A stretch of DNA of 33,262 bases from an uncultured Acholeplasmataceae bacterium. GTDB taxonomy: Bacteria > Bacillota_I > Bacilli_A > Acholeplasmatales > Acholeplasmataceae. The stretch is from the NCBI GenBank assembly GCA_963540905.1, contig CAUTRH010000001.1:1-33262 (forward strand), written 5' to 3'. The position numbers were made by a program, and so were the translations under genes. Shown here piece after piece: positions 76 to 20,600 of the stretch. The notes beneath the pieces are model-generated. The model saw only the letters and a program-made list of their open reading frames with translations, had not been told where the DNA came from and ran no database searches. Position 1 is the stretch's first letter. Each line of letters starts with the position of its first letter.

Positions 76-210
76 ATGAAAAAAACAAATTTAATGTGCA
101 GTCAATGCCTTCAGAGAAACTATCAAGTTGCAGTTGGCAGTAAAAGAATTGAAATCAAAAAATACTGCCCAAAATGCAACTCACATACCCTACATAAAGA
201 AAATAAATGA
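76..210 (+). CDS. rpmG: 50S ribosomal protein L33 (44 aa, Zn-ribbon form)
   Basis: Absent from the ORF track because it is too short. ATG at 76 lies 6 nt after GAGG (66-69). It translates to MKKTNLMCSQCLQRNYQVAVGSKRIEIKKYCPKCNSHTLHKENK, with two CxxC pairs and the KKYCPKC..HT.H.E.K tail typical of L33. The TGA stop at 208-210 overlaps the ispG ATG (ATGA). Confidence 0.85.
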   Translation: MKKTNLMCSQCLQRNYQVAVGSKRIEIKKYCPKCNSHTLHKENK

Positions 211-1250
211 TTACAAAAAGAAATAAAACTACTCGGTTTAAATGTGGTAGTTTGATAATTGGTGGAAATAACAACATATACATCCAGTCAATGACTACTA
301 CTAAAACTAAAGATGTCGAAAACACGGTTAAGCAGATAAAAGAGCTAGAGCAAGCAGGTTGCCAAATCATCAGAGTAGCAGTTCTAGATGAAACCGACGC
401 TAAATCAATTAAAGAAATTAAGAAACAAATTAACATTCCTTTAGTTGCAGATATCCATTTTGACTATCGACTAGCTTTAATTGCAATTGAAAATGGTGTT
501 GATAAAATTAGAATTAACCCTGGCAACATTGTAAATAAAAACCACATCAGGCAAATTGTGGATGCTTGTAGAGCAAAAGGAATCGGTATTAGAATTGGAC
601 TAAACTCAGGCTCCTTGCCAAATGCTTTAACGGCAACTGCTGAAAACTTTATTAAAGTAATGAAAAAAGAAGTTGAAATGCTTGAAGAATTTGGTTTTAC
701 AGACATTTGTCTATCTTTAAAGGCAACTTCTGTTTTAACTACTATTAAGTGTTATGAACTTGCTGCAAAAACATTTAAATATCCACTGCACATCGGAGTA
801 ACTGAAGCGGGTACTTTAATTGGTGGCACTGTTAAAAGCAGTTCAGCGCTTTCTGTGCTTTTACTGAAAGGAATTGGCAACACTATACGCGTGTCTTTGA
901 CTGAAAACCCAGTTTTAGAAATTAAAGTTGCAAAAGAAATTCTCAAGTGTTTAGGTCTAAAAAAAGATGGTGTTGACTTTCTAAGCTGTCCGACCTGTGG
1001 GCGTTTGGAATACAATATGGAAGAAATTGCTAAACGCGTTGAAACTTTTTGCGATACTTTAAATAAAAAGATTAAAGTTGCTGTTATGGGTTGTACTGTC
1101 AATGGTCCCGGAGAAGCAAGAGATTCTGATATTGGAATATGTGGAAACAAAGACAGTGTTTTAATTTTTAAGAAAGGTAAAGTCTTTAAAAAAGTTAAAC
1201 CAAAAGAGGCTTATGAAGAATTAACCAATATTATTTCAAACGATTTTTAA
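207..1250 (+). CDS. ispG: 4-hydroxy-3-methylbut-2-enyl diphosphate synthase (GcpE, MEP pathway)
   Basis: 347-aa ORF with PLVADIHFDYRLAL, DKIRINPGNI, CPTCGR and GCTVNGPGEA, which are the IspG TIM-barrel and 4Fe-4S cluster signatures. Confidence 0.93.
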   Translation: MITKRNKTTRFKCGSLIIGGNNNIYIQSMTTTKTKDVENTVKQIKELEQAGCQIIRVAVLDETDAKSIKEIKKQINIPLVADIHFDYRLALIAIENGVDKIRINPGNIVNKNHIRQIVDACRAKGIGIRIGLNSGSLPNALTATAENFIKVMKKEVEMLEEFGFTDICLSLKATSVLTTIKCYELAAKTFKYPLHIGVTEAGTLIGGTVKSSSALSVLLLKGIGNTIRVSLTENPVLEIKVAKEILKCLGLKKDGVDFLSCPTCGRLEYNMEEIAKRVETFCDTLNKKIKVAVMGCTVNGPGEARDSDIGICGNKDSVLIFKKGKVFKKVKPKEAYEELTNIISNDF

Positions 1251-1327
1251 CACTTTAAAATAAAAAATAAATCTAAGCAAATAATTTGTTTTAATTTTAA
1301 AATAGAATATACTTATAGTATCGGATC

Positions 1328-1360
1328 GGTCAAGAAGCGTACGGCGCCTTGACCATTTTT
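1328..1360 (+). terminator. GC-rich hairpin plus T-run (intrinsic terminator, attenuator or 3' end of a small RNA)
   Basis: GGTCAAG (1328-1334) pairs with CTTGACC (1348-1354). An inner GCG/CGC extension is present, followed by ATTTTT (1355-1360). The element is roughly 59% GC in an AT-rich spacer. It lies 78 nt after the ispG stop and 15 nt before the ancestral abi ATG (1375). Confidence 0.6.
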
Positions 1361-1432
1361 AATGGTAAAGATAAATGAAAGAGTTTAAAACTATAAGACA
1401 GTAATTAAATATTTTAAGAAAAAGAGGCTTGA

Positions 1433-2329
1433 TTGTACCAAAAAACGGTAAGCCAAAAAAAATTTCTAGAAGAAAATAATTATTATAATGTGATAAATGG
1501 TTATAAATATTTATTTCTTGGAAAAGACACAACCGGTAATTTAGTAAATCCTGAGTGTTTTGTTGAAAATACACACTTTGATTCACTAAAATTCCTATTT
1601 CTGTTTGACAGAGAACTAAGAATAATTTTTTTAAAATACATTTTAATTTTTGAAAACACATTCAAAAGTATACTATCTTATGTTTTTACCAAAAAATACC
1701 CTAATTCAAACTCATACCTTGATAAAACAAATTTTTCTAAAGATAGAAAGTCTGCATTTAACCAAATTATAGTGTCAACCAAAATATTATCCGAACAGGT
1801 AGATTATGAAGGCCCTATTAAACACTATTTGGATGTACACACCGATGTGCCTTTTTGGGTTTTAGTTAATAGAATGACTTTGGGCAATTTATCGCATTTT
1901 TACGATTCATTGCAAGAATCTGAGAAGAATGAAATAGCCAATAAATTTTATACTAAATATAATAAAGAATACAAAACAAAAAGTGTATACAAACTACAAA
2001 CTGGTAATTTTAGATTAGGATTAAAAATAATATACCTTGTTAGAAATATGTGTGCACATGATGAAAGACTATACAATGTTAAACTAAAAACTAAAAAAAT
2101 AAATAATTTGAGAAACTTATTTAATCTTGATGAAAATACCGGACATAATAAACTTATTGATGTTATTTTATTTCTGAAATTTTTATTAAATAAAAATGAC
2201 TTTAGGAATTTTTACCTAGAATTGACAAAATTACTGGGGAAATACAGAGATAAATTTGATGCAAATATCTATGACTTAATTTTAGATTCCATGGGTATAG
2301 AGATCAGCGAACTTAAAAAACTTAAATAA
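1433..2329 (+). CDS. Abi_2 family (AbiD/AbiF-like) abortive-infection protein, HEPN-type; 5' end appears degraded
   Basis: 298-aa ORF (TTG start in the track) with NNYYNVINGYKYLF and FDRELRIIFLKYILIFENTFKS. It carries YLVRNMCAHDERLYN, an Rx4H HEPN motif at nt 2042-2059, which is characteristic of Abi_2. The expected N-terminus (MKEFKTIRQ-stop-LNILRKRGLIV) is upstream in another frame (1375-1440). Confidence 0.8.
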   Translation: MYQKTVSQKKFLEENNYYNVINGYKYLFLGKDTTGNLVNPECFVENTHFDSLKFLFLFDRELRIIFLKYILIFENTFKSILSYVFTKKYPNSNSYLDKTNFSKDRKSAFNQIIVSTKILSEQVDYEGPIKHYLDVHTDVPFWVLVNRMTLGNLSHFYDSLQESEKNEIANKFYTKYNKEYKTKSVYKLQTGNFRLGLKIIYLVRNMCAHDERLYNVKLKTKKINNLRNLFNLDENTGHNKLIDVILFLKFLLNKNDFRNFYLELTKLLGKYRDKFDANIYDLILDSMGIEISELKKLK

Positions 2330-2336
2330 TTTTATT

Positions 2337-2363
2337 AAAAAGAGACGCCAAGCGTCTCTTTTT
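2337..2363. terminator. Bidirectional intrinsic terminator between convergent abi and trpS
   Basis: AAAA-AGAGACGC-CAA-GCGTCTCT-TTTT. The 8-bp GC-rich stem (2341-2348 / 2352-2359) is flanked by an A-run and a T-run. Confidence 0.8.
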
Positions 2364-3366
2364 AATATCCTAAACCAACTGCTTTTTTGACCTTTGTATA
2401 GTTTTCTTTTGCTAGTTTTTCAGCAAACTTTTTGCCGCTCTCCAGAGTTTCAATCAACTCTTTTGAGTTAACAAGTTTTTCTATATTTTCGCCTAACGGA
2501 ACGATTTCCTGAATTAAAAGTTCAGCAAGGTCTAGTTTGAATTCTGCATAAGTTTTTGCATCTTTATATTTAGTTTCAATGTCTTTAATAGATAAATTAG
2601 TCAGAGCTGCATATATATTGATTAAATTAGAAATTTCAGGTTTTTTATCCATATCAAAATAAATTTTTGCTTCTGAATCCGTAACAGCTGATTTTATTTT
2701 TTTAAGTATGGAATCCCTAGAATCTGAAAGTAATATATAGGATTTTGGGTTTTCAGAACTTTTAGACATTTTTACAAAAGGGTCTTGTAAGGACATTATA
2801 CGGCGTGTATGTTTATTGATTTCATATTTAGGTATTTTAAAGGTTTCGCCGTACAGTTTATTAAAACGCTTAGCCAGAGTTTCTGTTAACTCCATATGTT
2901 GTTTTTGGTCTTCACCAATTGGCACAAGGTCTGCGTTGTAAAGTAAGATGTCTGCAGCCATTAGGGCAGGATAGGTAAAAAGCGAACTTTTGATGTTTTT
3001 AGTGTTAGCGGACTTTTCTTTAAATTGAATCATTCTGCTAAGCTCACCAAAATAAGCAGTAGACTCCATTAAAAATCCAAGTGCAGCGTGTTCATTAATT
3101 TCAGATTGCACAAAAATATGAGTGTGGTTTTTGTCAAAGCCCAGCGCTGAATAGCAGGCTGCGATTCTTAAAATATTTTCTCTTAGTTCTTTTGGGTCAA
3201 TTGGCAAAGTAGTGGCGTGCAGGTCTGCAATAAAAATCAAAAGTTCTGAGTCTGGATTCGCCTGAACAACCGCTTTTAGGTTTTTTAAAGCACCTAAATA
3301 ATTGCCAAGAGTTAGGCTTCCGGTTGGTTTAATTGCTGTTAAAATAATTTTTCTATTTTTGTCCAT
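2362..3366 (-). CDS. trpS: Tryptophan--tRNA ligase
   Basis: Class I aaRS with TGSLTLGNYLGA (HIGH-like) and KMSKS (FVKMSKSS). Start reassigned to ATG 3366 (MDKNRKIIL), 7 nt after AAGGA. The track start at 3384 is a TTG inside the upstream gene. Confidence 0.92.
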   Translation of the reverse strand: MDKNRKIILTAIKPTGSLTLGNYLGALKNLKAVVQANPDSELLIFIADLHATTLPIDPKELRENILRIAACYSALGFDKNHTHIFVQSEINEHAALGFLMESTAYFGELSRMIQFKEKSANTKNIKSSLFTYPALMAADILLYNADLVPIGEDQKQHMELTETLAKRFNKLYGETFKIPKYEINKHTRRIMSLQDPFVKMSKSSENPKSYILLSDSRDSILKKIKSAVTDSEAKIYFDMDKKPEISNLINIYAALTNLSIKDIETKYKDAKTYAEFKLDLAELLIQEIVPLGENIEKLVNSKELIETLESGKKFAEKLAKENYTKVKKAVGLGY

Positions 3367-4195
3367 ATGAATATCCTTTGACAACTTTGGTCTCTATTTT
3401 GGAAACCCCTCTAAAAACCTCGCCATCAACTTGTGCAGTTTTAGTGTTTTCGGTTTCTATTGTGATTTCTTTAGCTTTAAAAGTTTTAACGAATCTTTTA
3501 AAGACTGTGTGCCAGCCTAAATAAATAAACGGAAAAAGTAGCAATAAAAGTAATCTTGAACGAATTGTTACTAATATCAAATAAAGAAAATCTTCTCTTT
3601 TGGCCATTGGAGCAATTTTCATACCACCCCCAAAATAAGGGCCGTGCATCACGGAAGCCAAAAAACAGTTTTTGTATTCGCTAGCTACACCATCTACCGC
3701 TACTTTTACTGAAAACGGTTTATATCTAAAAAAAGTAGCAATGGTGACTTTAGCAAAAGTGCTTTTGATTTTATATACACGCATATTATCTAGACGTCTG
3801 CAAATTTCTCCGTCTATACCAATTCCCACACCATTTAAAAATAAGAAGGTTTCATCGCCTATCTTGGCTTGTCCAAAATACTTTAAATTGGCTTTAAAAT
3901 CAACTGCCTTGGTTTTGTCTTTAAAGCCACGAAGAAAATCATTTCCGGTTCCACCGCGCGCAACTAACACTGTGGCTTTAACCTGGGTTAGGTTAACTGA
4001 GTTTACAATTTTATTTAAAGTACCATCTCCACCAAATATCAAAATCACGTCTCTTTTGGAAAAAGACTTGAAATACTTTTCAATATCGGAAAGTGCGAGT
4101 ATTGAGTTTAAAGTAGCATTATCTTGATTTTCTAAATAAAACTTATGGGCTTTTTTGTAGTTTTTAGAAAGTGGGTTGTAAATAATTCTATACAT
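3353..4195 (-). CDS. Diacylglycerol/lipid kinase family protein (YegS/DagK-like)
   Basis: 280 aa with the IFGGDGTLN and GGTGNDF motifs of the DAGK catalytic domain. Overlaps the trpS start by 14 nt. Confidence 0.8.
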   Translation of the reverse strand: MYRIIYNPLSKNYKKAHKFYLENQDNATLNSILALSDIEKYFKSFSKRDVILIFGGDGTLNKIVNSVNLTQVKATVLVARGGTGNDFLRGFKDKTKAVDFKANLKYFGQAKIGDETFLFLNGVGIGIDGEICRRLDNMRVYKIKSTFAKVTIATFFRYKPFSVKVAVDGVASEYKNCFLASVMHGPYFGGGMKIAPMAKREDFLYLILVTIRSRLLLLLLFPFIYLGWHTVFKRFVKTFKAKEITIETENTKTAQVDGEVFRGVSKIETKVVKGYSYGQK

Positions 4196-10092: not shown

Positions 10093-10491
10093 ATGAAAGA
10101 AAAACAAATTTCTCTAACTGCTCTTTATTTATATCTTACAACAGTGCTTGCTGCTATCGCAAGTGCGGTGCTACTAAGTGCATTTAACTTAATAAAGGCA
10201 AATACTACTGACTTAAAACCAGAAATTCAGTCATCTGCTCAACTTTCTTTAATTTTAACAACAGCGGTAATTATGTTGATTGTGGCAGCAATTTCAGCGT
10301 TTACTTATTTAATTTTTTATGTGCTAACTTATATTAAAAACAACCAAATTACTAAAAAGTTTGATTTTGTTTGTTTCTTAATTGGTTTTTTCATTCCAAT
10401 ATTTGCGCTTATCTTTATTGTCAAAGTCGGACTTTTGCAAAACAAATGTCTTTGCAAAAAAACATGTAATGCAGAAAACAATCAAAATTAA
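10093..10491 (+). CDS. Small integral membrane protein (3 predicted TM helices, Cys-rich tail)
   Basis: 132-aa ORF with RBS AGAGG 7 nt upstream, three hydrophobic segments and the tail NKCLCKKTCNAENNQN. No family recognised. Confidence 0.6.
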   Translation: MKEKQISLTALYLYLTTVLAAIASAVLLSAFNLIKANTTDLKPEIQSSAQLSLILTTAVIMLIVAAISAFTYLIFYVLTYIKNNQITKKFDFVCFLIGFFIPIFALIFIVKVGLLQNKCLCKKTCNAENNQN

Positions 10492-10512
10492 CTTAAAAAA
10501 TCAAATCGACCT

Positions 10513-10541
10513 AAAAAACCCCATAATTATGGGGGCTTTTT
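10513..10541 (+). terminator. Putative intrinsic terminator after the membrane-protein gene
   Basis: AAAAAA-CCCCAT-AATT-ATGGGG-GCTTTTT. The likely cca start codon (10529-10531) is inside the 3' arm. Confidence 0.5.
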
Positions 10542-11644
10542 ATATTTTAAGAAAATTAGAAGACACAGGGTATTCTGCGTACATTGTAGGCGGATTTGTT
10601 CGTGATTTGGTTTGTGGGTTTAAAAACTTAAGTACAGATATCGACATCACTACAAGCGCAGAACCCACAGAAATTAAAAAAGTATTTAAACACACTTTTG
10701 ACAAAGGTATCAAATACGGCACAGTTGGCGTGTTGGTCGGCGGAGTTGCTTACGATGTGACGACTTACCGAAGTGAAAAAAACTACCAAGACAGCAGGCA
10801 TCCCGAAACTATTGTTTTTACCAAAGAAATTAATGAAGACTTAGTTAGAAGAGACTTTGCGATAAATGCACTAATCCTGGATAAAAACTATACAGTTTTA
10901 GACTATGTTGGTGGGCTTTCTGATATCAAAAACAAACAAATTAAAACAATAGGAACGCCAGACAATCGTTTTAAAGAAGATGCACTTAGACTAATTCGCT
11001 TGATTTACTTTCAAACAAAACTGGGTTTTTCAATAGAAACCAACACTAAAGAAAGTTTAAATAACCTTAGTTATTTAGTAAAAGAAATCCACCCTGAACG
11101 CATAACAAGCGAGTTTACTAAGGTTTTTTTAAATGGATATTTTCGTGAGTTTATCAATAATTTACGTGAAACTAAGATGTTTGATATAATTATTAAGCGC
11201 AAGTTTACAGACAATCTACTAAATGATTTTACTAACTGCTTAAATGTAGACGAGATGTTGGTTTTTCTGAATTTCTTTGAAAAACAAGAAAACCCATATT
11301 TAATCTAAACAAACAAAGTTAAAAATCAAATTAAGTTTGTTAAAAAGATTATTGAAAATAAGTATCTGGAAAAAGATTTGCGCGTAAACTTGATTCGCTT
11401 TCAAACAGAGACTATAGACCTTGCTTTAAAAATTGCTAAATATTTTTACAATAAAGATTACTGTCGAAATGAAGTTGTTTCAGATGTTAAAAGATATCTT
11501 GAAGCAGAGAAATACATTAAAAGTAAAAATATCAACTACGAAAAACTATTTAAAAATAAAGCAAAGGCTGAATATGGTGAACTTATTTTGATGCTCATCA
11601 AAAAAGTGGCCGATGAAGGATACCTACTGAATGAAATTAATTAA
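10529..11644 (+). pseudogene. cca: CCA-adding enzyme / tRNA nucleotidyltransferase interrupted by one in-frame TAA (11306-11308)
   Basis: MGAFYILRKLEDTGYSAYIVGGFVRDLV..DIDITT is the Pol-beta nucleotidyltransferase head. The 88-aa track ORF (11378-11644, TTG start) is in the same frame, and every codon between it and the TAA is sense. The joined length of 371 aa is normal for cca. Alternative start at ATG 10469. Confidence 0.75.
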
Positions 11645-15250: not shown

Positions 15251-16873
15251 TTATAATAACTCCTCTGTTTGGGGTTTGTTTTCTTTTTTAATTGAAACAA
15301 TTTTATAAAAAGCGGTTTGACCGATTGAAAATAAGTTACCAATTATCCAGTAAAACGCCAGCCCACGGTCGTTAATTGACCACCAAGTCATCACGCCCGC
15401 CATGATAATTCCGAAAATCAGCATCATGTGTTGGTTGCGTTTAGGGTCTTTTTTAGGGTCAATTACTACAGTTCTTGCGTCTTTTTCGCGCATTTTTGCG
15501 GTTTTATATGAACTGATTAGCTGAATTAAAACCATGGTGCAAAATACGATAAATGCAAGTAGATAGTTAGTTAAGTCTTTACCAGCGCCTAAGTTCAGAC
15601 CCATAAAAGATTTATCCCAAACTTGGTATGCGTAGTATCCACCTTCCACGGTAACTCGGTTAATAGTGTTATAAACTCCAATAAAAATTGGCATTTGCAA
15701 GAATGGAATTAAGAAAGAGGAGAAACCTACTTTGTGTTTGCGATAAATTCGCATCGTCTCCATTTGTTTTTGTTGAATAAAGGCTTTGTCTGTTCTGCCC
15801 TGATATTTACGCTCTAGTTTATTTAAGTCAGGGGTCATTTTCTGCATTCTGGCAGACATTACATTAGTGCGGGCGTAAATTGGCCAGGCCAAGATACGAA
15901 CGATAATTGTTGTAAAAATGATACCAATTGCGAATTTACCAGCAATTGAGGTATTTCCAAGCAACCAACCCATCCAGGCTGTGGTTAAGTAGTCGAACCA
16001 ACCAAAAGTTTGTTTGTGTAAAGGATACTGGCCTCCACCTACAAAAACGTCGGTTGTTAGCTTAAAGTCGCTGTATTTTGCTAAAAACTCAGAGTTTTCA
16101 CTTAACGCTGAATTAAAGTTAATTTGATAGCTGTAAGTAATTACTTCTTTGTCTTTGTTTTTAACTAAATATCTAGCTTGTTCAAAATTGCTATCTATGA
16201 CTTTTTTGGCAATTAAGTCCTTAGTTTGGATTTTCTTATCGTGTCCTTCTTCAAGTTCTAACAGACTTTTTGTGTAAAGTGATTTTTCAATAACTTCAGG
16301 CTCTGGTGCTTTATCTAAATTAAAACGATAAATATTGCTAAACTTAACTAAGTCAGAAAAATTAACGCGCTCACCAATTCTTCTAAAGAACGGAAAAGGT
16401 GTTAAAACAGGGTTTTTAGCGTTACCGATATTCAGTTCGTAAGTTTGGAAATACATGCTAGCTTTGCTTGCTTTGAAAAGTGCTTTGTCGTAAACCACAT
16501 TAAAAGTGCGAGTGATATTTTTGTCTTGCACATCGGTTAAAGTGACGTCAATTAGTCCGTTTGCATCAACTTTCTCACCAAGAGTTAGTCTGTATCCGTC
16601 TTTGAAGTTGCCACGATCAAGTTGTTGAACAGATCCGTCTTCAAGTAGACGATATACTGAAAGAGAAGGTAAGTTTTCAGTAAGCGGGGCAAGTGCTCTA
16701 AAGTCATTTCCTTGCAGAGAAACTTCTTTGCCTGAATTTAGTTGAACTCGCTCTGAGTAGGTACCAAATTGATGGTATAGACCAATGATTTTTTGTTTTT
16801 TATTACAAGACACTAAAGTAAAAACTAAAACTGCTGAAATAAAAAACAAAAGCAGGGTTTTGATTTTATTCAT
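15251..16873 (-). CDS. yidC: Membrane protein insertase YidC with lipoprotein signal and a ~265-aa extra N-terminal extracytoplasmic domain
   Basis: 540 aa with lipobox LVS-C at Cys23. The YidC/Oxa1 core runs from about aa 290 (IIVRILAWPIYARTNVMSARMQKMTPDLNKLERKY). ATGA overlap with the rnpA stop. Confidence 0.9.
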   Translation of the reverse strand: MNKIKTLLLFFISAVLVFTLVSCNKKQKIIGLYHQFGTYSERVQLNSGKEVSLQGNDFRALAPLTENLPSLSVYRLLEDGSVQQLDRGNFKDGYRLTLGEKVDANGLIDVTLTDVQDKNITRTFNVVYDKALFKASKASMYFQTYELNIGNAKNPVLTPFPFFRRIGERVNFSDLVKFSNIYRFNLDKAPEPEVIEKSLYTKSLLELEEGHDKKIQTKDLIAKKVIDSNFEQARYLVKNKDKEVITYSYQINFNSALSENSEFLAKYSDFKLTTDVFVGGGQYPLHKQTFGWFDYLTTAWMGWLLGNTSIAGKFAIGIIFTTIIVRILAWPIYARTNVMSARMQKMTPDLNKLERKYQGRTDKAFIQQKQMETMRIYRKHKVGFSSFLIPFLQMPIFIGVYNTINRVTVEGGYYAYQVWDKSFMGLNLGAGKDLTNYLLAFIVFCTMVLIQLISSYKTAKMREKDARTVVIDPKKDPKRNQHMMLIFGIIMAGVMTWWSINDRGLAFYWIIGNLFSIGQTAFYKIVSIKKENKPQTEELL

Positions 16874-17208
16874 TGTTCCTCCACTTTATAGATTTTATTT
16901 AAAGAACCAGTCAGTTCTTTTTTAATTTCTATAAATGTTAGTATTGCTGCTACAGGTTTAACTACAACTATTGTTAAAAAACTTAATTTGCATTGTTTAT
17001 AGTTTCTCAAAATATTTCTGATTTGTCTTTTAATTTTGTTGCGTTGAACAGCGTTGCCAAATTTTTTACCAATCGAGATACCAAACCTGGAGTGTGGTTC
17101 TTCTGTTTGTCTAAACACAATTCTAAAGTGCAGTGTGCTGAATTTCTTGCCGGTTTTAAATATTTGGTCAAACTCTGCGTATTTTTTGACTCTGTATTTT
17201 TTTTCCAT
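16870..17208 (-). CDS. rnpA: Ribonuclease P protein component
   Basis: MEKKYRVKKYAEFDQIFKTGKK..RNKIKRQIRN is typical RnpA. The start at ATG 17208 is preferred over the track start at 17241, which remains possible. TGA stop. Confidence 0.85.
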   Translation of the reverse strand: MEKKYRVKKYAEFDQIFKTGKKFSTLHFRIVFRQTEEPHSRFGISIGKKFGNAVQRNKIKRQIRNILRNYKQCKLSFLTIVVVKPVAAILTFIEIKKELTGSLNKIYKVEEQ

Positions 17209-17286
17209 AATGTGTATAAAAAACCACCTTAAAATATTCAATTTAAAAATATTTATCTGGTGGTTAGGTTCAAATATTTATTTAAA

Positions 17287-19442: not shown

Positions 19443-20600
19443 ATGAACTTTAAAATCAAAACAGAAACCTTAATTGAATACATCAACTTGGTTGCTAAAG
19501 CCTTACCAAACAAAAGCCCTAGACCACTTAGTGAAAGCATTAAATTCTCAGTTAAAAAAGACTCAATAAAAATATTTGCGAACCACAAAAACTTAGAGAT
19601 TATGGCAATAGTTGATACTAACATTGAAGTGCTTGTAGAAGGTAACGCAATCTTAGATGGCAAAACAATTTTAAACATTATTAAGTCACCAGGTATTGCT
19701 TTGCACGAAGAAGTTCAGTTCATTCAAATTTCTGAATACCAAGTTCTGATAATCGCTGGAACTTCAGAGTTTAGACTAAATGCTTTAAACTACGACCTTG
19801 AACACTTGATTTTTGAAGAAGATGAAAAACCAATTGTCATTTCTAGCGAAGATTTAGCAATTTCTTTAAAAGAAGTGGTTTACTGTACAGCAGATCCAGA
19901 TGCCAAACCAAGAATCGTTTGTTTAACTGGTGTGAACTTTGCGTTTAGCGAACGCAGATTAACACTAACCGGTAGCGACAACGCTAGACTTGCCCAAAAA
20001 CGACTTGAAGTTAATTCAAAGAAAAACCTGAATTTAACAATACCTGCCGAATCTATTAAGGAACTGCTTAAAATTCTTGAACAAACTAAAGGCGATGTTG
20101 AAATTTCTGTGAACCCACTTTGTTCAAAAGTGTTGTTTGTGATTAAAAATGTCTTCTTTCAAACCGCTGTACTTTCAGATAAATACGGTAATCTAAACAG
20201 TGCTACTCAATTTGAAACTAAACTATCAATTCCTTTAAAAACTGTTGAGTTTAGCAATGCCCTTAAAACAATTTCAGCAGTTACTGATAAATCAAAGTCA
20301 ACTTACTTAATTAACTTCACTTTAAAACCAAACAAGACTTGTGAAGTTGCAACTTCTGAAAACGGAAAAGGTTCGTCTCGCACTATTTTAATTCCAGCAG
20401 GAGAAATTTACAATCAATTGGCCGAGACCTTCTTAATGATTTTTTCACTTAAACACTTGCAAGAAGCAATCTTGGTGTATGAAAGTCTTGGTATTGAAGA
20501 ACTCGCGCTTGAGTTTTACTCAAATGACCGTGCAGTTCGAATTACCTCACTTGAAGAGCCTGAACTAGTTACTCTAATTACCCCTCTTAATAATTTTTAA
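19443..20600 (+). CDS. dnaN: DNA polymerase III beta sliding clamp
   Basis: 385 aa in the conserved position after dnaA, with a three-domain clamp-like pattern (N-terminal MNFKIKTETLIEYINLVAKALP). Confidence 0.9.
   Translation: MNFKIKTETLIEYINLVAKALPNKSPRPLSESIKFSVKKDSIKIFANHKNLEIMAIVDTNIEVLVEGNAILDGKTILNIIKSPGIALHEEVQFIQISEYQVLIIAGTSEFRLNALNYDLEHLIFEEDEKPIVISSEDLAISLKEVVYCTADPDAKPRIVCLTGVNFAFSERRLTLTGSDNARLAQKRLEVNSKKNLNLTIPAESIKELLKILEQTKGDVEISVNPLCSKVLFVIKNVFFQTAVLSDKYGNLNSATQFETKLSIPLKTVEFSNALKTISAVTDKSKSTYLINFTLKPNKTCEVATSENGKGSSRTILIPAGEIYNQLAETFLMIFSLKHLQEAILVYESLGIEELALEFYSNDRAVRITSLEEPELVTLITPLNNF

Follow-up and report, generated by a model that had tools for sequence, protein, structure and literature searches.

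An AbiF-like toxin gene broken at its 5' end behind an intact leader hairpin in the ispG-trpS slot of an uncultured Acholeplasmataceae bacterium

The 33,262-nt stretch of DNA analysed here (positions 1 to 33,262 of contig CAUTRH010000001.1, assembly GCA_963540905.1, forward strand; hereafter, the window) comes from an uncultured Acholeplasmataceae bacterium and holds, between ispG and trpS, a small cassette made up of a hairpin leader and the remnant of an Abi_2 (AbiD/F-type) toxin gene. The cassette runs from the ispG stop codon to the terminator shared by ispG and trpS (approximately 1251-2335), and its G+C content of 22-30% compares with 33-38% in the flanks. The features of the locus are listed below, with ORF standing for open reading frame, ncRNA for non-coding RNA and aa for amino acids.

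207..1250, plus strand: ispG (GcpE), the left flank (Pfam GcpE, 5e-135)
1286..1313, plus strand: putative sigma-70 promoter, with -35 TTGTTT (1286-1291), a 16-nt spacer and -10 TATACT (1308-1313)
1324..1360, plus strand: conserved leader and candidate antitoxin ncRNA, with GAUC (1324-1327), a bulged hairpin (1328-1354) and A plus U5 (1355-1360)
1375..2329, plus strand: pseudogene of the Abi_2 / AbiD-F type (AbiF-like HEPN RNase toxin), with intact orthologues of 317 aa to which it is colinear
1402..1404, plus strand: lesion 1, nonsense TAA at codon 10, CAA (Gln) in all relatives carrying the same allele (allele A, below)
1433..2329, plus strand: longest remaining ORF, TTG start, 298 aa, with AGAGG at 1423-1427
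1455..1462, plus strand: lesion 2, a +1 insertion after codon 29 that makes the homopolymer A8, against A7 (CCA AAA AAA TTT) or A6 in relatives
2042..2059, plus strand: HEPN catalytic motif RNMCAH (Rx4H), aligning with RNSCCH of 8vz6_A
2336..2364, both directions: native bidirectional terminator common to ispG and trpS (A-run, AGAGACGC-CAA-GCGTCTCT, T-run), outside the cassette
2362..3384, minus strand: trpS, the right flank (Pfam tRNA-synt_1b); called in relatives at 334 aa from the equivalent of ATG 3366

An earlier reading made from the letters alone (the sequence-only reading) had described a complete-looking Abi_2 body with RNMCAH at 2042-2059, flanked by ispG and trpS and accompanied by no integrase, and profile searches agree with each of these points. 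The Pfam scan that it proposed matches the 298-aa ORF to Abi_2 (PF07751) with 125.8 bits (cut-off 25.6; 3e-36) over profile positions 1-184 of 184, and the best PADLOC model is AbiD (1e-41, 141 bits), the score of which rises to 161 bits, with the match reaching model position 4, when the upstream codons are conceptually joined. The catalytic motif follows the R-[NHD]-x-x-x-H pattern of the AbiD/F HEPN RNases, and none of R223, N224, C226, A227 and H228 varies among 40 homologues. A protein search returned 663 relatives, most commonly 317 aa long, and the closest orthologues, P0001 (97% identical) and P0002 (88%), are intact 317-aa proteins encoded in the same ispG-trpS slot, with the N-terminus MKEFKTIRQQ(I/L)NILRKRGLI(V/I)PKNGKPKKFLEENNYYN. 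The sequence of P0001 matches PbAbiF (8vz6_A) from residue 4 through the HEPN motif (8e-12), and its AlphaFold2 model (predicted local distance difference test score, pLDDT, of 86) has 8vz6_A as its sole significant neighbour in the Protein Data Bank (template-modelling (TM) scores 0.72/0.76, E=1e-10). The protein family therefore has the AbiF fold, as judged on this 97%-identical intact orthologue. The window copy lacks the intact frame with its conserved N-terminal helix, owing to the TAA at codon 10 and the +1 frameshift after codon 29, and is a pseudogene of the AbiD/F family.

Judged by relatives retrieved through ispG, the window belongs to a clade of metagenome-assembled genomes (MAGs) from uncultured Acholeplasmataceae, with ispG 93-97% identical, across which the ispG-trpS junction occurs in four states (allele A, allele B, empty and scar), distributed as follows with relatives given by their L numbers.

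Allele A, intact: L023 (= L001), L002, L004, L005, L009
Allele A, broken at the 5' end: the window
Allele A, at least two frameshifts in the C-terminal half: L003
Allele B (about 45% identical to A), intact: L012, L013, L015
Allele B, frameshift near codon 286: L007
Allele B, nonsense at codon 37: L014
Allele B, contig end, not scorable: L010
Empty, 43-47 bp with the bidirectional terminator alone (AAAAAGAGAC...GTCTCTTTTT): L008, L011, L017, L018
Empty, the two stop codons abutting: L016
Scar of 200 bp (2832-3033), keeping the promoter region, the hairpin and the last cassette bases, with the ORF deleted: L006

Allele B occupies exactly the same slot in its sister MAGs (L007, L010, L012-L015; e.g., 2839-3833 in L012). 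This comparison of the junction, which the sequence-only reading had called for, establishes the region as an insertion relative to the empty sites. Since the four empty sites with residual sequence hold only the equivalent of the hairpin at 2341-2359, which lies within the terminator recovered at 2336-2364 by a terminator scan, this hairpin is the native terminator of ispG and trpS. Profile searches of the flanking genes (rpmG, ispG, trpS, a DAGK/YegS-like kinase and tyrS) gave no integrase or recombinase, and alignment of the junctions with those of relatives gave no evident direct repeats, so that the two hallmarks of an integrase-borne genomic island are lacking here, although presence/absence polymorphism does exist. 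With two alleles, empty sites and a scar across the clade, the cassette is an old, polymorphic occupant of the slot rather than a recent arrival.

The lesions were placed by DNA alignment to L001-L003 and by blastn to L002, L004, L009 and L023. Translation from ATG 1375 gives MKEFKTIRQ, the TAA at 1402-1404 and then LNILRKRGLIVPKNGKPKKISRRK up to a stop, which agrees with the earlier account of LNILRKRGLIV continuing in the same frame beyond a stop codon where Q or E was expected; the residue in the orthologues is Q, encoded by CAA, and a window-specific C>T change at 1402 accounts for the stop. The +1 frame contains a TGA at 1430-1432, directly followed, as had also been noted, by the TTG at 1433 that opens the 298-aa frame to 2329. 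The position assigned to the frameshift had to be revised. It had been put near the A6 run at 1440-1445, which is unchanged relative to the relatives, whereas frame 1 of the window follows the intact orthologues as far as PKNGKPKK (to 1461), which puts the additional A in the A8 run at 1455-1462; the junction peptide KTVSQKK proposed earlier is out-of-frame sequence when set against the orthologues. A third window-specific change, a C at 1312, turns the -10 box at 1308-1313 from TATAAT into TATACT and may add to the inactivation. Acholeplasmas use the standard genetic code. An alternative code, with TGA or TAA as a sense codon, was considered and rejected, given the assignment to Acholeplasmataceae, neighbouring genes that are full length under table 11 and an ispG that itself ends in TAA.

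Inactivation appears to have come late in the history of this lineage. Pairwise ratios of nonsynonymous to synonymous substitution rates (dN/dS) for the toxin gene are 0.08-0.23, and the changes on the window branch comprise 10 synonymous, 3 missense and 1 nonsense. Under a neutral expectation with 79% nonsynonymous sites, the probability of 3 or fewer nonsynonymous changes among 13 is 2.6e-5. Such purifying selection on the window branch implies that the inactivation is recent relative to that branch. Together with the intact same-slot orthologues (97% and 88% identical) and the restriction of the lesions to the window, this favours the option of a freshly inactivated gene among those that had been offered at the outset.

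Directly upstream of the broken gene lies a leader that the window shares with its relatives. The geometry of the putative promoter is kept in the allele A, allele B, Streptococcus and Faecalimonas-type loci, with a -10 box of TATAAT in all relatives, and transcription is predicted to start near 1320, 2-4 nt before a GAUY sequence. In the window, 7 bp form the outer stem of the hairpin and 4 bp the inner stem, with AA bulged out on the 5' side and ACG as the loop; the fold energy is -14 to -15 kcal/mol, and the hairpin with its U-run ends 14 nt before the ATG. More generally, an outer stem of 6-7 bp and an inner stem of 4 bp are separated by a 2-nt 5' bulge (AA), the inner stem is closed by a triloop, and an A and a U-run follow. 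Among 13 distinct variants all 143 cells pair, two pairs with compensatory double changes and three with one-sided wobble-compatible changes, and slid controls fall to 20-45% paired; the majority of these variants came from a search pattern that constrains the 3' half of the hairpin. A covariance model built from the variants (R1) has its sole match in the window at 1324-1359 (53 bits, E=7e-13) and exactly one match per occupied locus, always upstream of an Abi_2 gene of the window's subfamily, and gave no match in the empty sites, phiC2 or the more distant Abi_2 loci.

The association between the hairpin and Abi_2 extends well beyond this clade. A 26-nt degenerate hairpin pattern retrieved 97 metagenome and 2 viral stretches, and in 91 of the 99 an Abi_2 start lies 16-28 nt 3' of the hairpin, the other eight being four contig ends and four orphans or scars. 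Alleles A and B, with proteins about 45% identical, are both preceded by the hairpin with identical bulge and loop (AAGCGTACGGCGC), and it also stands 5' of 50%-identical homologues in Streptococcus intermedius, where the copy sits in a prophage-like region beside an integrase, in Faecalimonas-type gut contigs and elsewhere. The leader is 78-89% identical between lineages in which the coding DNA is 60-63% identical. Because the hairpin is missing from the empty sites and travels with Abi_2 across unrelated genomes, it belongs to the cassette. The sequence-only reading had treated the gene as solo, which no longer holds in view of this linked RNA, and had taken two hairpin terminators (1328-1360 and 2341-2359) to bound the island; both hairpins are real, though the upstream one is a part of the cassette and not its boundary.

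Within the clade, the slot is occupied and scorable in 13 cases, of which eight are intact, four (the window, L003, L007 and L014) are broken by differing lesions and one (L006) is a scar, such that the ORF has been lost in 5 of 13 cases and the hairpin kept in 13 of 13. Metagenomic copies linked to the motif and with enough sequence comprise 45 intact genes, 31 with premature stops and about 11 with ATG>CTG, with lesions put at about 40% of metagenomic copies; these proportions are indicative only, as many of the contigs have low coverage and the sampling required an intact hairpin. Loss of the toxin with retention of the RNA is recurrent, a pattern in keeping with a self-toxic gene prone to loss and an antidote, doubling as a terminator, whose retention is harmless or useful.

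Two groups of metagenome contigs are of interest in their own right. A gut-metagenome lineage carries ATG>CTG (L097-L099, L105, L117, L119, L122, L134, L156, L164 and L182), in the majority of cases with a shared internal deletion of residues ~59-221, and the presence of this allele in many independent samples indicates a dead allele circulating behind an intact hairpin. Contigs L185, L146/L179 and L130 hold orphan hairpins or scars with 0-9 Abi codons or none left.

Several described systems share parts of this organization. [quoted passage not shown] This system, found in the C. difficile prophage phi027/phiC2, resembles the window in having an AbiF HEPN toxin with an RNxCAH motif placed after a SigA-type promoter, a hairpin RNA and a Rho-independent terminator (PMC12373285), and the N-terminal motif 'EEQI.iLK.RGL' is common to AbiFCd and the window family. 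The RNAs differ: RCd22 is ~100-130 nt long, with two RF03085 hairpins and a separate terminator 168 nt from the ATG, whereas the window has one 27-nt hairpin, itself the likely terminator and 14 nt from the ATG, with a 5' AA bulge and no 3' CAAAU bulge. The RF03085 model comprises a 6-bp stem, an A bulge, a 3-bp stem and a 3' CAAAUC bulge. The setting differs as well, the window cassette being chromosomal between core genes with its toxin broken, and AbiFCd lying inside a prophage lysis module.

As two reports summarise it (PMC12737573, PMC12373285), 8VZ6 is the solved structure of a PbAbiF dimer with its bound ncRNA, Cas13 is considered to descend from AbiF, and PbAbiF-AbiFr (Prevotellaceae; Zilberzwige-Tal et al. 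2025) pairs a homodimeric RNase with a cis-encoded hairpin RNA that silences it. The window family shares its fold and, from residue 4, its sequence match; identity is only 21% and the RNA motif is different, and RNA binding by the window's subfamily is proposed by analogy. In the lactococcal group of AbiD, AbiD1 and AbiF plus AbiD-like, conservation of the upstream region exceeds that of the gene, and tolerance of the gene requires that region (PMC13064643). The window parallels this in the conservation of its leader and in having AbiD as best PADLOC model, but the lactococcal systems are plasmid-borne and distantly related, and their anti-phage activity has been demonstrated, whereas the window system is known from sequence alone. 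The type III toxin-antitoxin (TA) systems ToxIN and AbiQ-antiQ show the same succession of promoter, antitoxin RNA, terminator and toxin, and likewise a toxin that is lost more easily than its antitoxin; their antitoxins, however, consist of tandem repeats and are processed by an endoribonuclease that is unrelated and non-HEPN, and the window element has no repeats.

Taken together, we interpret the cassette as an AbiF-like abortive-infection or type III TA module, lodged between the ispG stop codon and the shared terminator, in which the toxin has recently been knocked out and the RNA left untouched, and we put the probability of this reading at roughly 0.72. The assignment to type III TA follows from the analogy with AbiF/AbiFr and AbiFCd/RCd22, in accordance with which the sequence offers a structured RNA with its own predicted promoter and terminator directly upstream of the toxin. 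In an intact copy, a constitutive promoter would drive a ~40-nt leader consisting of GAUC, the bulged hairpin and the U-run, at which the bulk of transcripts would end, yielding an abundant short RNA. Occasional read-through would give the mRNA of the 317-aa HEPN RNase, and the short RNA would bind and silence the RNase dimer until infection or stress tipped the balance. In the window, the nonsense change at codon 10 and the homopolymer frameshift after codon 29 would have removed the toxin from this scheme. Directly supported parts of this reading are the family membership of the gene, both lesions, the presence/absence polymorphism of the insertion, the conserved RNA with its linkage to Abi_2, and the recent and recurrent decay; by analogy with the characterized systems, the RNA would be made, would terminate transcription and would neutralise the protein. 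The hairpin may accordingly double as an intrinsic terminator, and its RNA most likely acted as the antidote of the toxin.

We acknowledge several points that weigh against this reading. The hairpin has no RF03085 match, even at E<=10 on a 101-nt slice of the window or in related loci, in a search for which phiC2 as positive control scored 37.6 bits, and further Rfam scans (the hairpin at an E-value threshold, the whole window at the gathering threshold) returned nothing relevant; the antitoxin role thus rests on analogy. The bulge here is on the 5' side (AA), whereas the inhibitory bulge reported for the RF03085 hairpin is on the 3' side. The consensus promoter scan did not list the promoter at 1286-1313, the -35 box of which matches at 3 of 6 positions. 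The metagenome sample, having required an intact hairpin, cannot alone demonstrate that the RNA is kept when the toxin is lost, and retention of the hairpin could merely reflect its use as the ispG terminator after insertion. A TTG-initiated ORF with a Shine-Dalgarno-like AGAGG remains open. Lastly, the lesions are known from the assembled sequence alone: exact-protein look-ups of the 298-aa ORF and of ispG in a contig index gave no match, and neither did a degenerate 50-nt pattern for the allele-A 5' region over the lesion in metagenome contigs.

In the alternative that survives best, the hairpin acts purely in cis, as a terminator or attenuator that shields the gene from ispG read-through and/or controls its translation as in AbiD1, and is no antitoxin acting in trans; the decay of the gene would be unchanged by it. 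A U-run that follows the stem directly, 14 nt from the start codon, would suit such a role, as would the lack of RF03085 features and the regulation of AbiD1 at translation via its mRNA (PMC2661086, PMC13064643), and in the scar L006 the retained hairpin could still terminate ispG. A plain terminator, however, needs no invariant loop and bulge bases, nor does it readily account for a leader so much better conserved than the coding DNA, and the conservation of GAUY and AA, both single-stranded, suggests that they are recognised by their sequence. We consider a purely cis-acting hairpin unlikely, though it is the alternative to our antitoxin reading that deserves most attention.

A further alternative is that the TTG at 1433 directs the synthesis of a truncated, functional protein, the A8 insertion having put this start into the frame of the body. 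The ORF is open over 298 aa and encodes the whole Abi_2 domain (profile 1-184) with the HEPN motif, AGAGG lies 5 nt upstream of the TTG, and the low dN/dS on the window lineage is compatible with ongoing selection. Against this, AGAGG is merely part of the conserved RKRG codons, and recent inactivation explains the low dN/dS equally well. The first 9 residues after the TTG are out of frame relative to the family, and the product would lack I13, L14, R15, R17 and G18 and have P22, G25 and P27 replaced, with the result that 8 of the 9 residues invariant before K28 among the 40 homologues are lost or replaced. The helix at residues 7-16, confidently modelled (pLDDT 91 for residues 11-20) and aligned to the solved N-terminus of PbAbiF, would be missing. 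No natural family member begins at this point either; the 299-aa members, which might pass for natural truncations, are start-codon calls over 18 intact upstream codons, and that homologues might routinely start at the equivalent of 1433 is thereby refuted. N-terminally truncated expression, one of the options raised earlier, is consequently improbable.

We regard as equally improbable that the true genome carries an intact 317-aa gene and that the TAA and the extra A are errors of sequencing or assembly. One lesion is indeed a 1-base homopolymer change, a classic type of error, and a second assembly of the same strain was not found by the protein and pattern look-ups. The other lesion is a C>T substitution, which is not a homopolymer error, and two errors within 60 nt of one dispensable gene would be an improbable coincidence. 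The A8 run is the sole coding indel across 7.2 kb aligned to four relatives at 91-93% identity, and pervasive homopolymer errors in the window were rejected on this ground; all six neighbouring genes keep the lengths of their orthologues. Relatives carry comparable independent lesions, and the third window-specific change, in the -10 box, likewise supports real lesions.

The weakest alternative, that the toxin is regulated by recoding (stop-codon readthrough with slippage on the A-run) or by reversible A7/A8 phase variation, can draw on the low-frequency slippage of A8 runs and on the varying tract length in relatives (A6, A7, A8), but it is highly improbable, since with the TAA 53 nt upstream of the A-run a full-length product needs two independent rare events, the frame-breaking tract length occurs in the window only, allele B and the other genera have no A-tract, no conserved recoding signal accompanies it and every orthologue is in frame and needs neither event, leaving little room for the readthrough or slippage suggested at the outset.

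The interpretation of the cassette as a module with a decayed toxin bears on the RNA itself. The window protein belongs to a known family, AbiF, as a pseudogene, and the RNA is a different, unregistered motif that possibly represents an undescribed variant. More tentatively, and with considerable doubt on our part, the 37-nt element, with its GAUY, invariant AA bulge, AYG loop and U-run, might define an undescribed class of AbiF antitoxin RNA, in which one hairpin would be both the antitoxin and a terminator throttling the toxin, serving a large Abi_2 subfamily that is common among Acholeplasmataceae and among Firmicutes of the gut and mouth; continued usefulness of an orphan antitoxin or terminator might also explain its retention once the toxin is gone. 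If true, a second hairpin architecture on the same protein fold would widen the range of RNA partners in the path from AbiF to Cas13.

For annotation, apparently solo Abi_2 genes deserve a check for a leader RNA, as the functional unit is the protein together with the RNA, and the Rfam abiF model misses the window's Abi_2 subfamily entirely. For evolution, a single slot between housekeeping genes can, within one clade, be empty, scarred or filled by either of two alleles 45% identical to each other, with four copies broken independently, and it amounts to a compact natural record of how a self-toxic defence gene is gained, replaced and lost. The broken window gene alone is an ordinary pseudogene; the RNA motif and the polymorphic slot are somewhat more interesting.

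Other structured leaders accompany distant Abi_2 genes. In the viral contigs L196, L199, L216 and L224 (~1400-1500), such genes follow a bulged hairpin that is unrelated in its stem sequences and likewise stands between GAUC and a U-run, and some viral contigs with distant Abi_2 genes (among them L201-L215) have other structured leaders with a separate terminator; RF03085 recognises none of the leaders in these contigs. In the lineage of the Abi_2 homologue P0003, an ORF of the RnlB_antitoxin family lies 40 nt 3' of the gene (3996-4355 in L084, 1326-1685 in L085) and may be a second, protein-level partner.

Elsewhere in the window, which yielded no tRNA and no Rfam match at the gathering threshold over its 33 kb, the mechanical trpS ORF (340 aa from TTG 3384) runs into the end of the DAGK/YegS-like gene (3353-3384), and the 334-aa calls in relatives make ATG 3366 the likelier start. 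At 10093-11308, a membrane-like ORF of 132 aa extends over the mechanical start of an ORF for a PolyA_pol/CCA-type nucleotidyltransferase, which probably begins at an internal ATG and is short (~260 aa); a split gene was suspected here and rejected in favour of a small membrane ORF followed by the nucleotidyltransferase, with no evident frameshift. Finally, yidC (15251-16873, minus strand), rnpA (16870-17241, minus strand) and dnaN (19443-20600, plus strand) put the window beside the replication origin.

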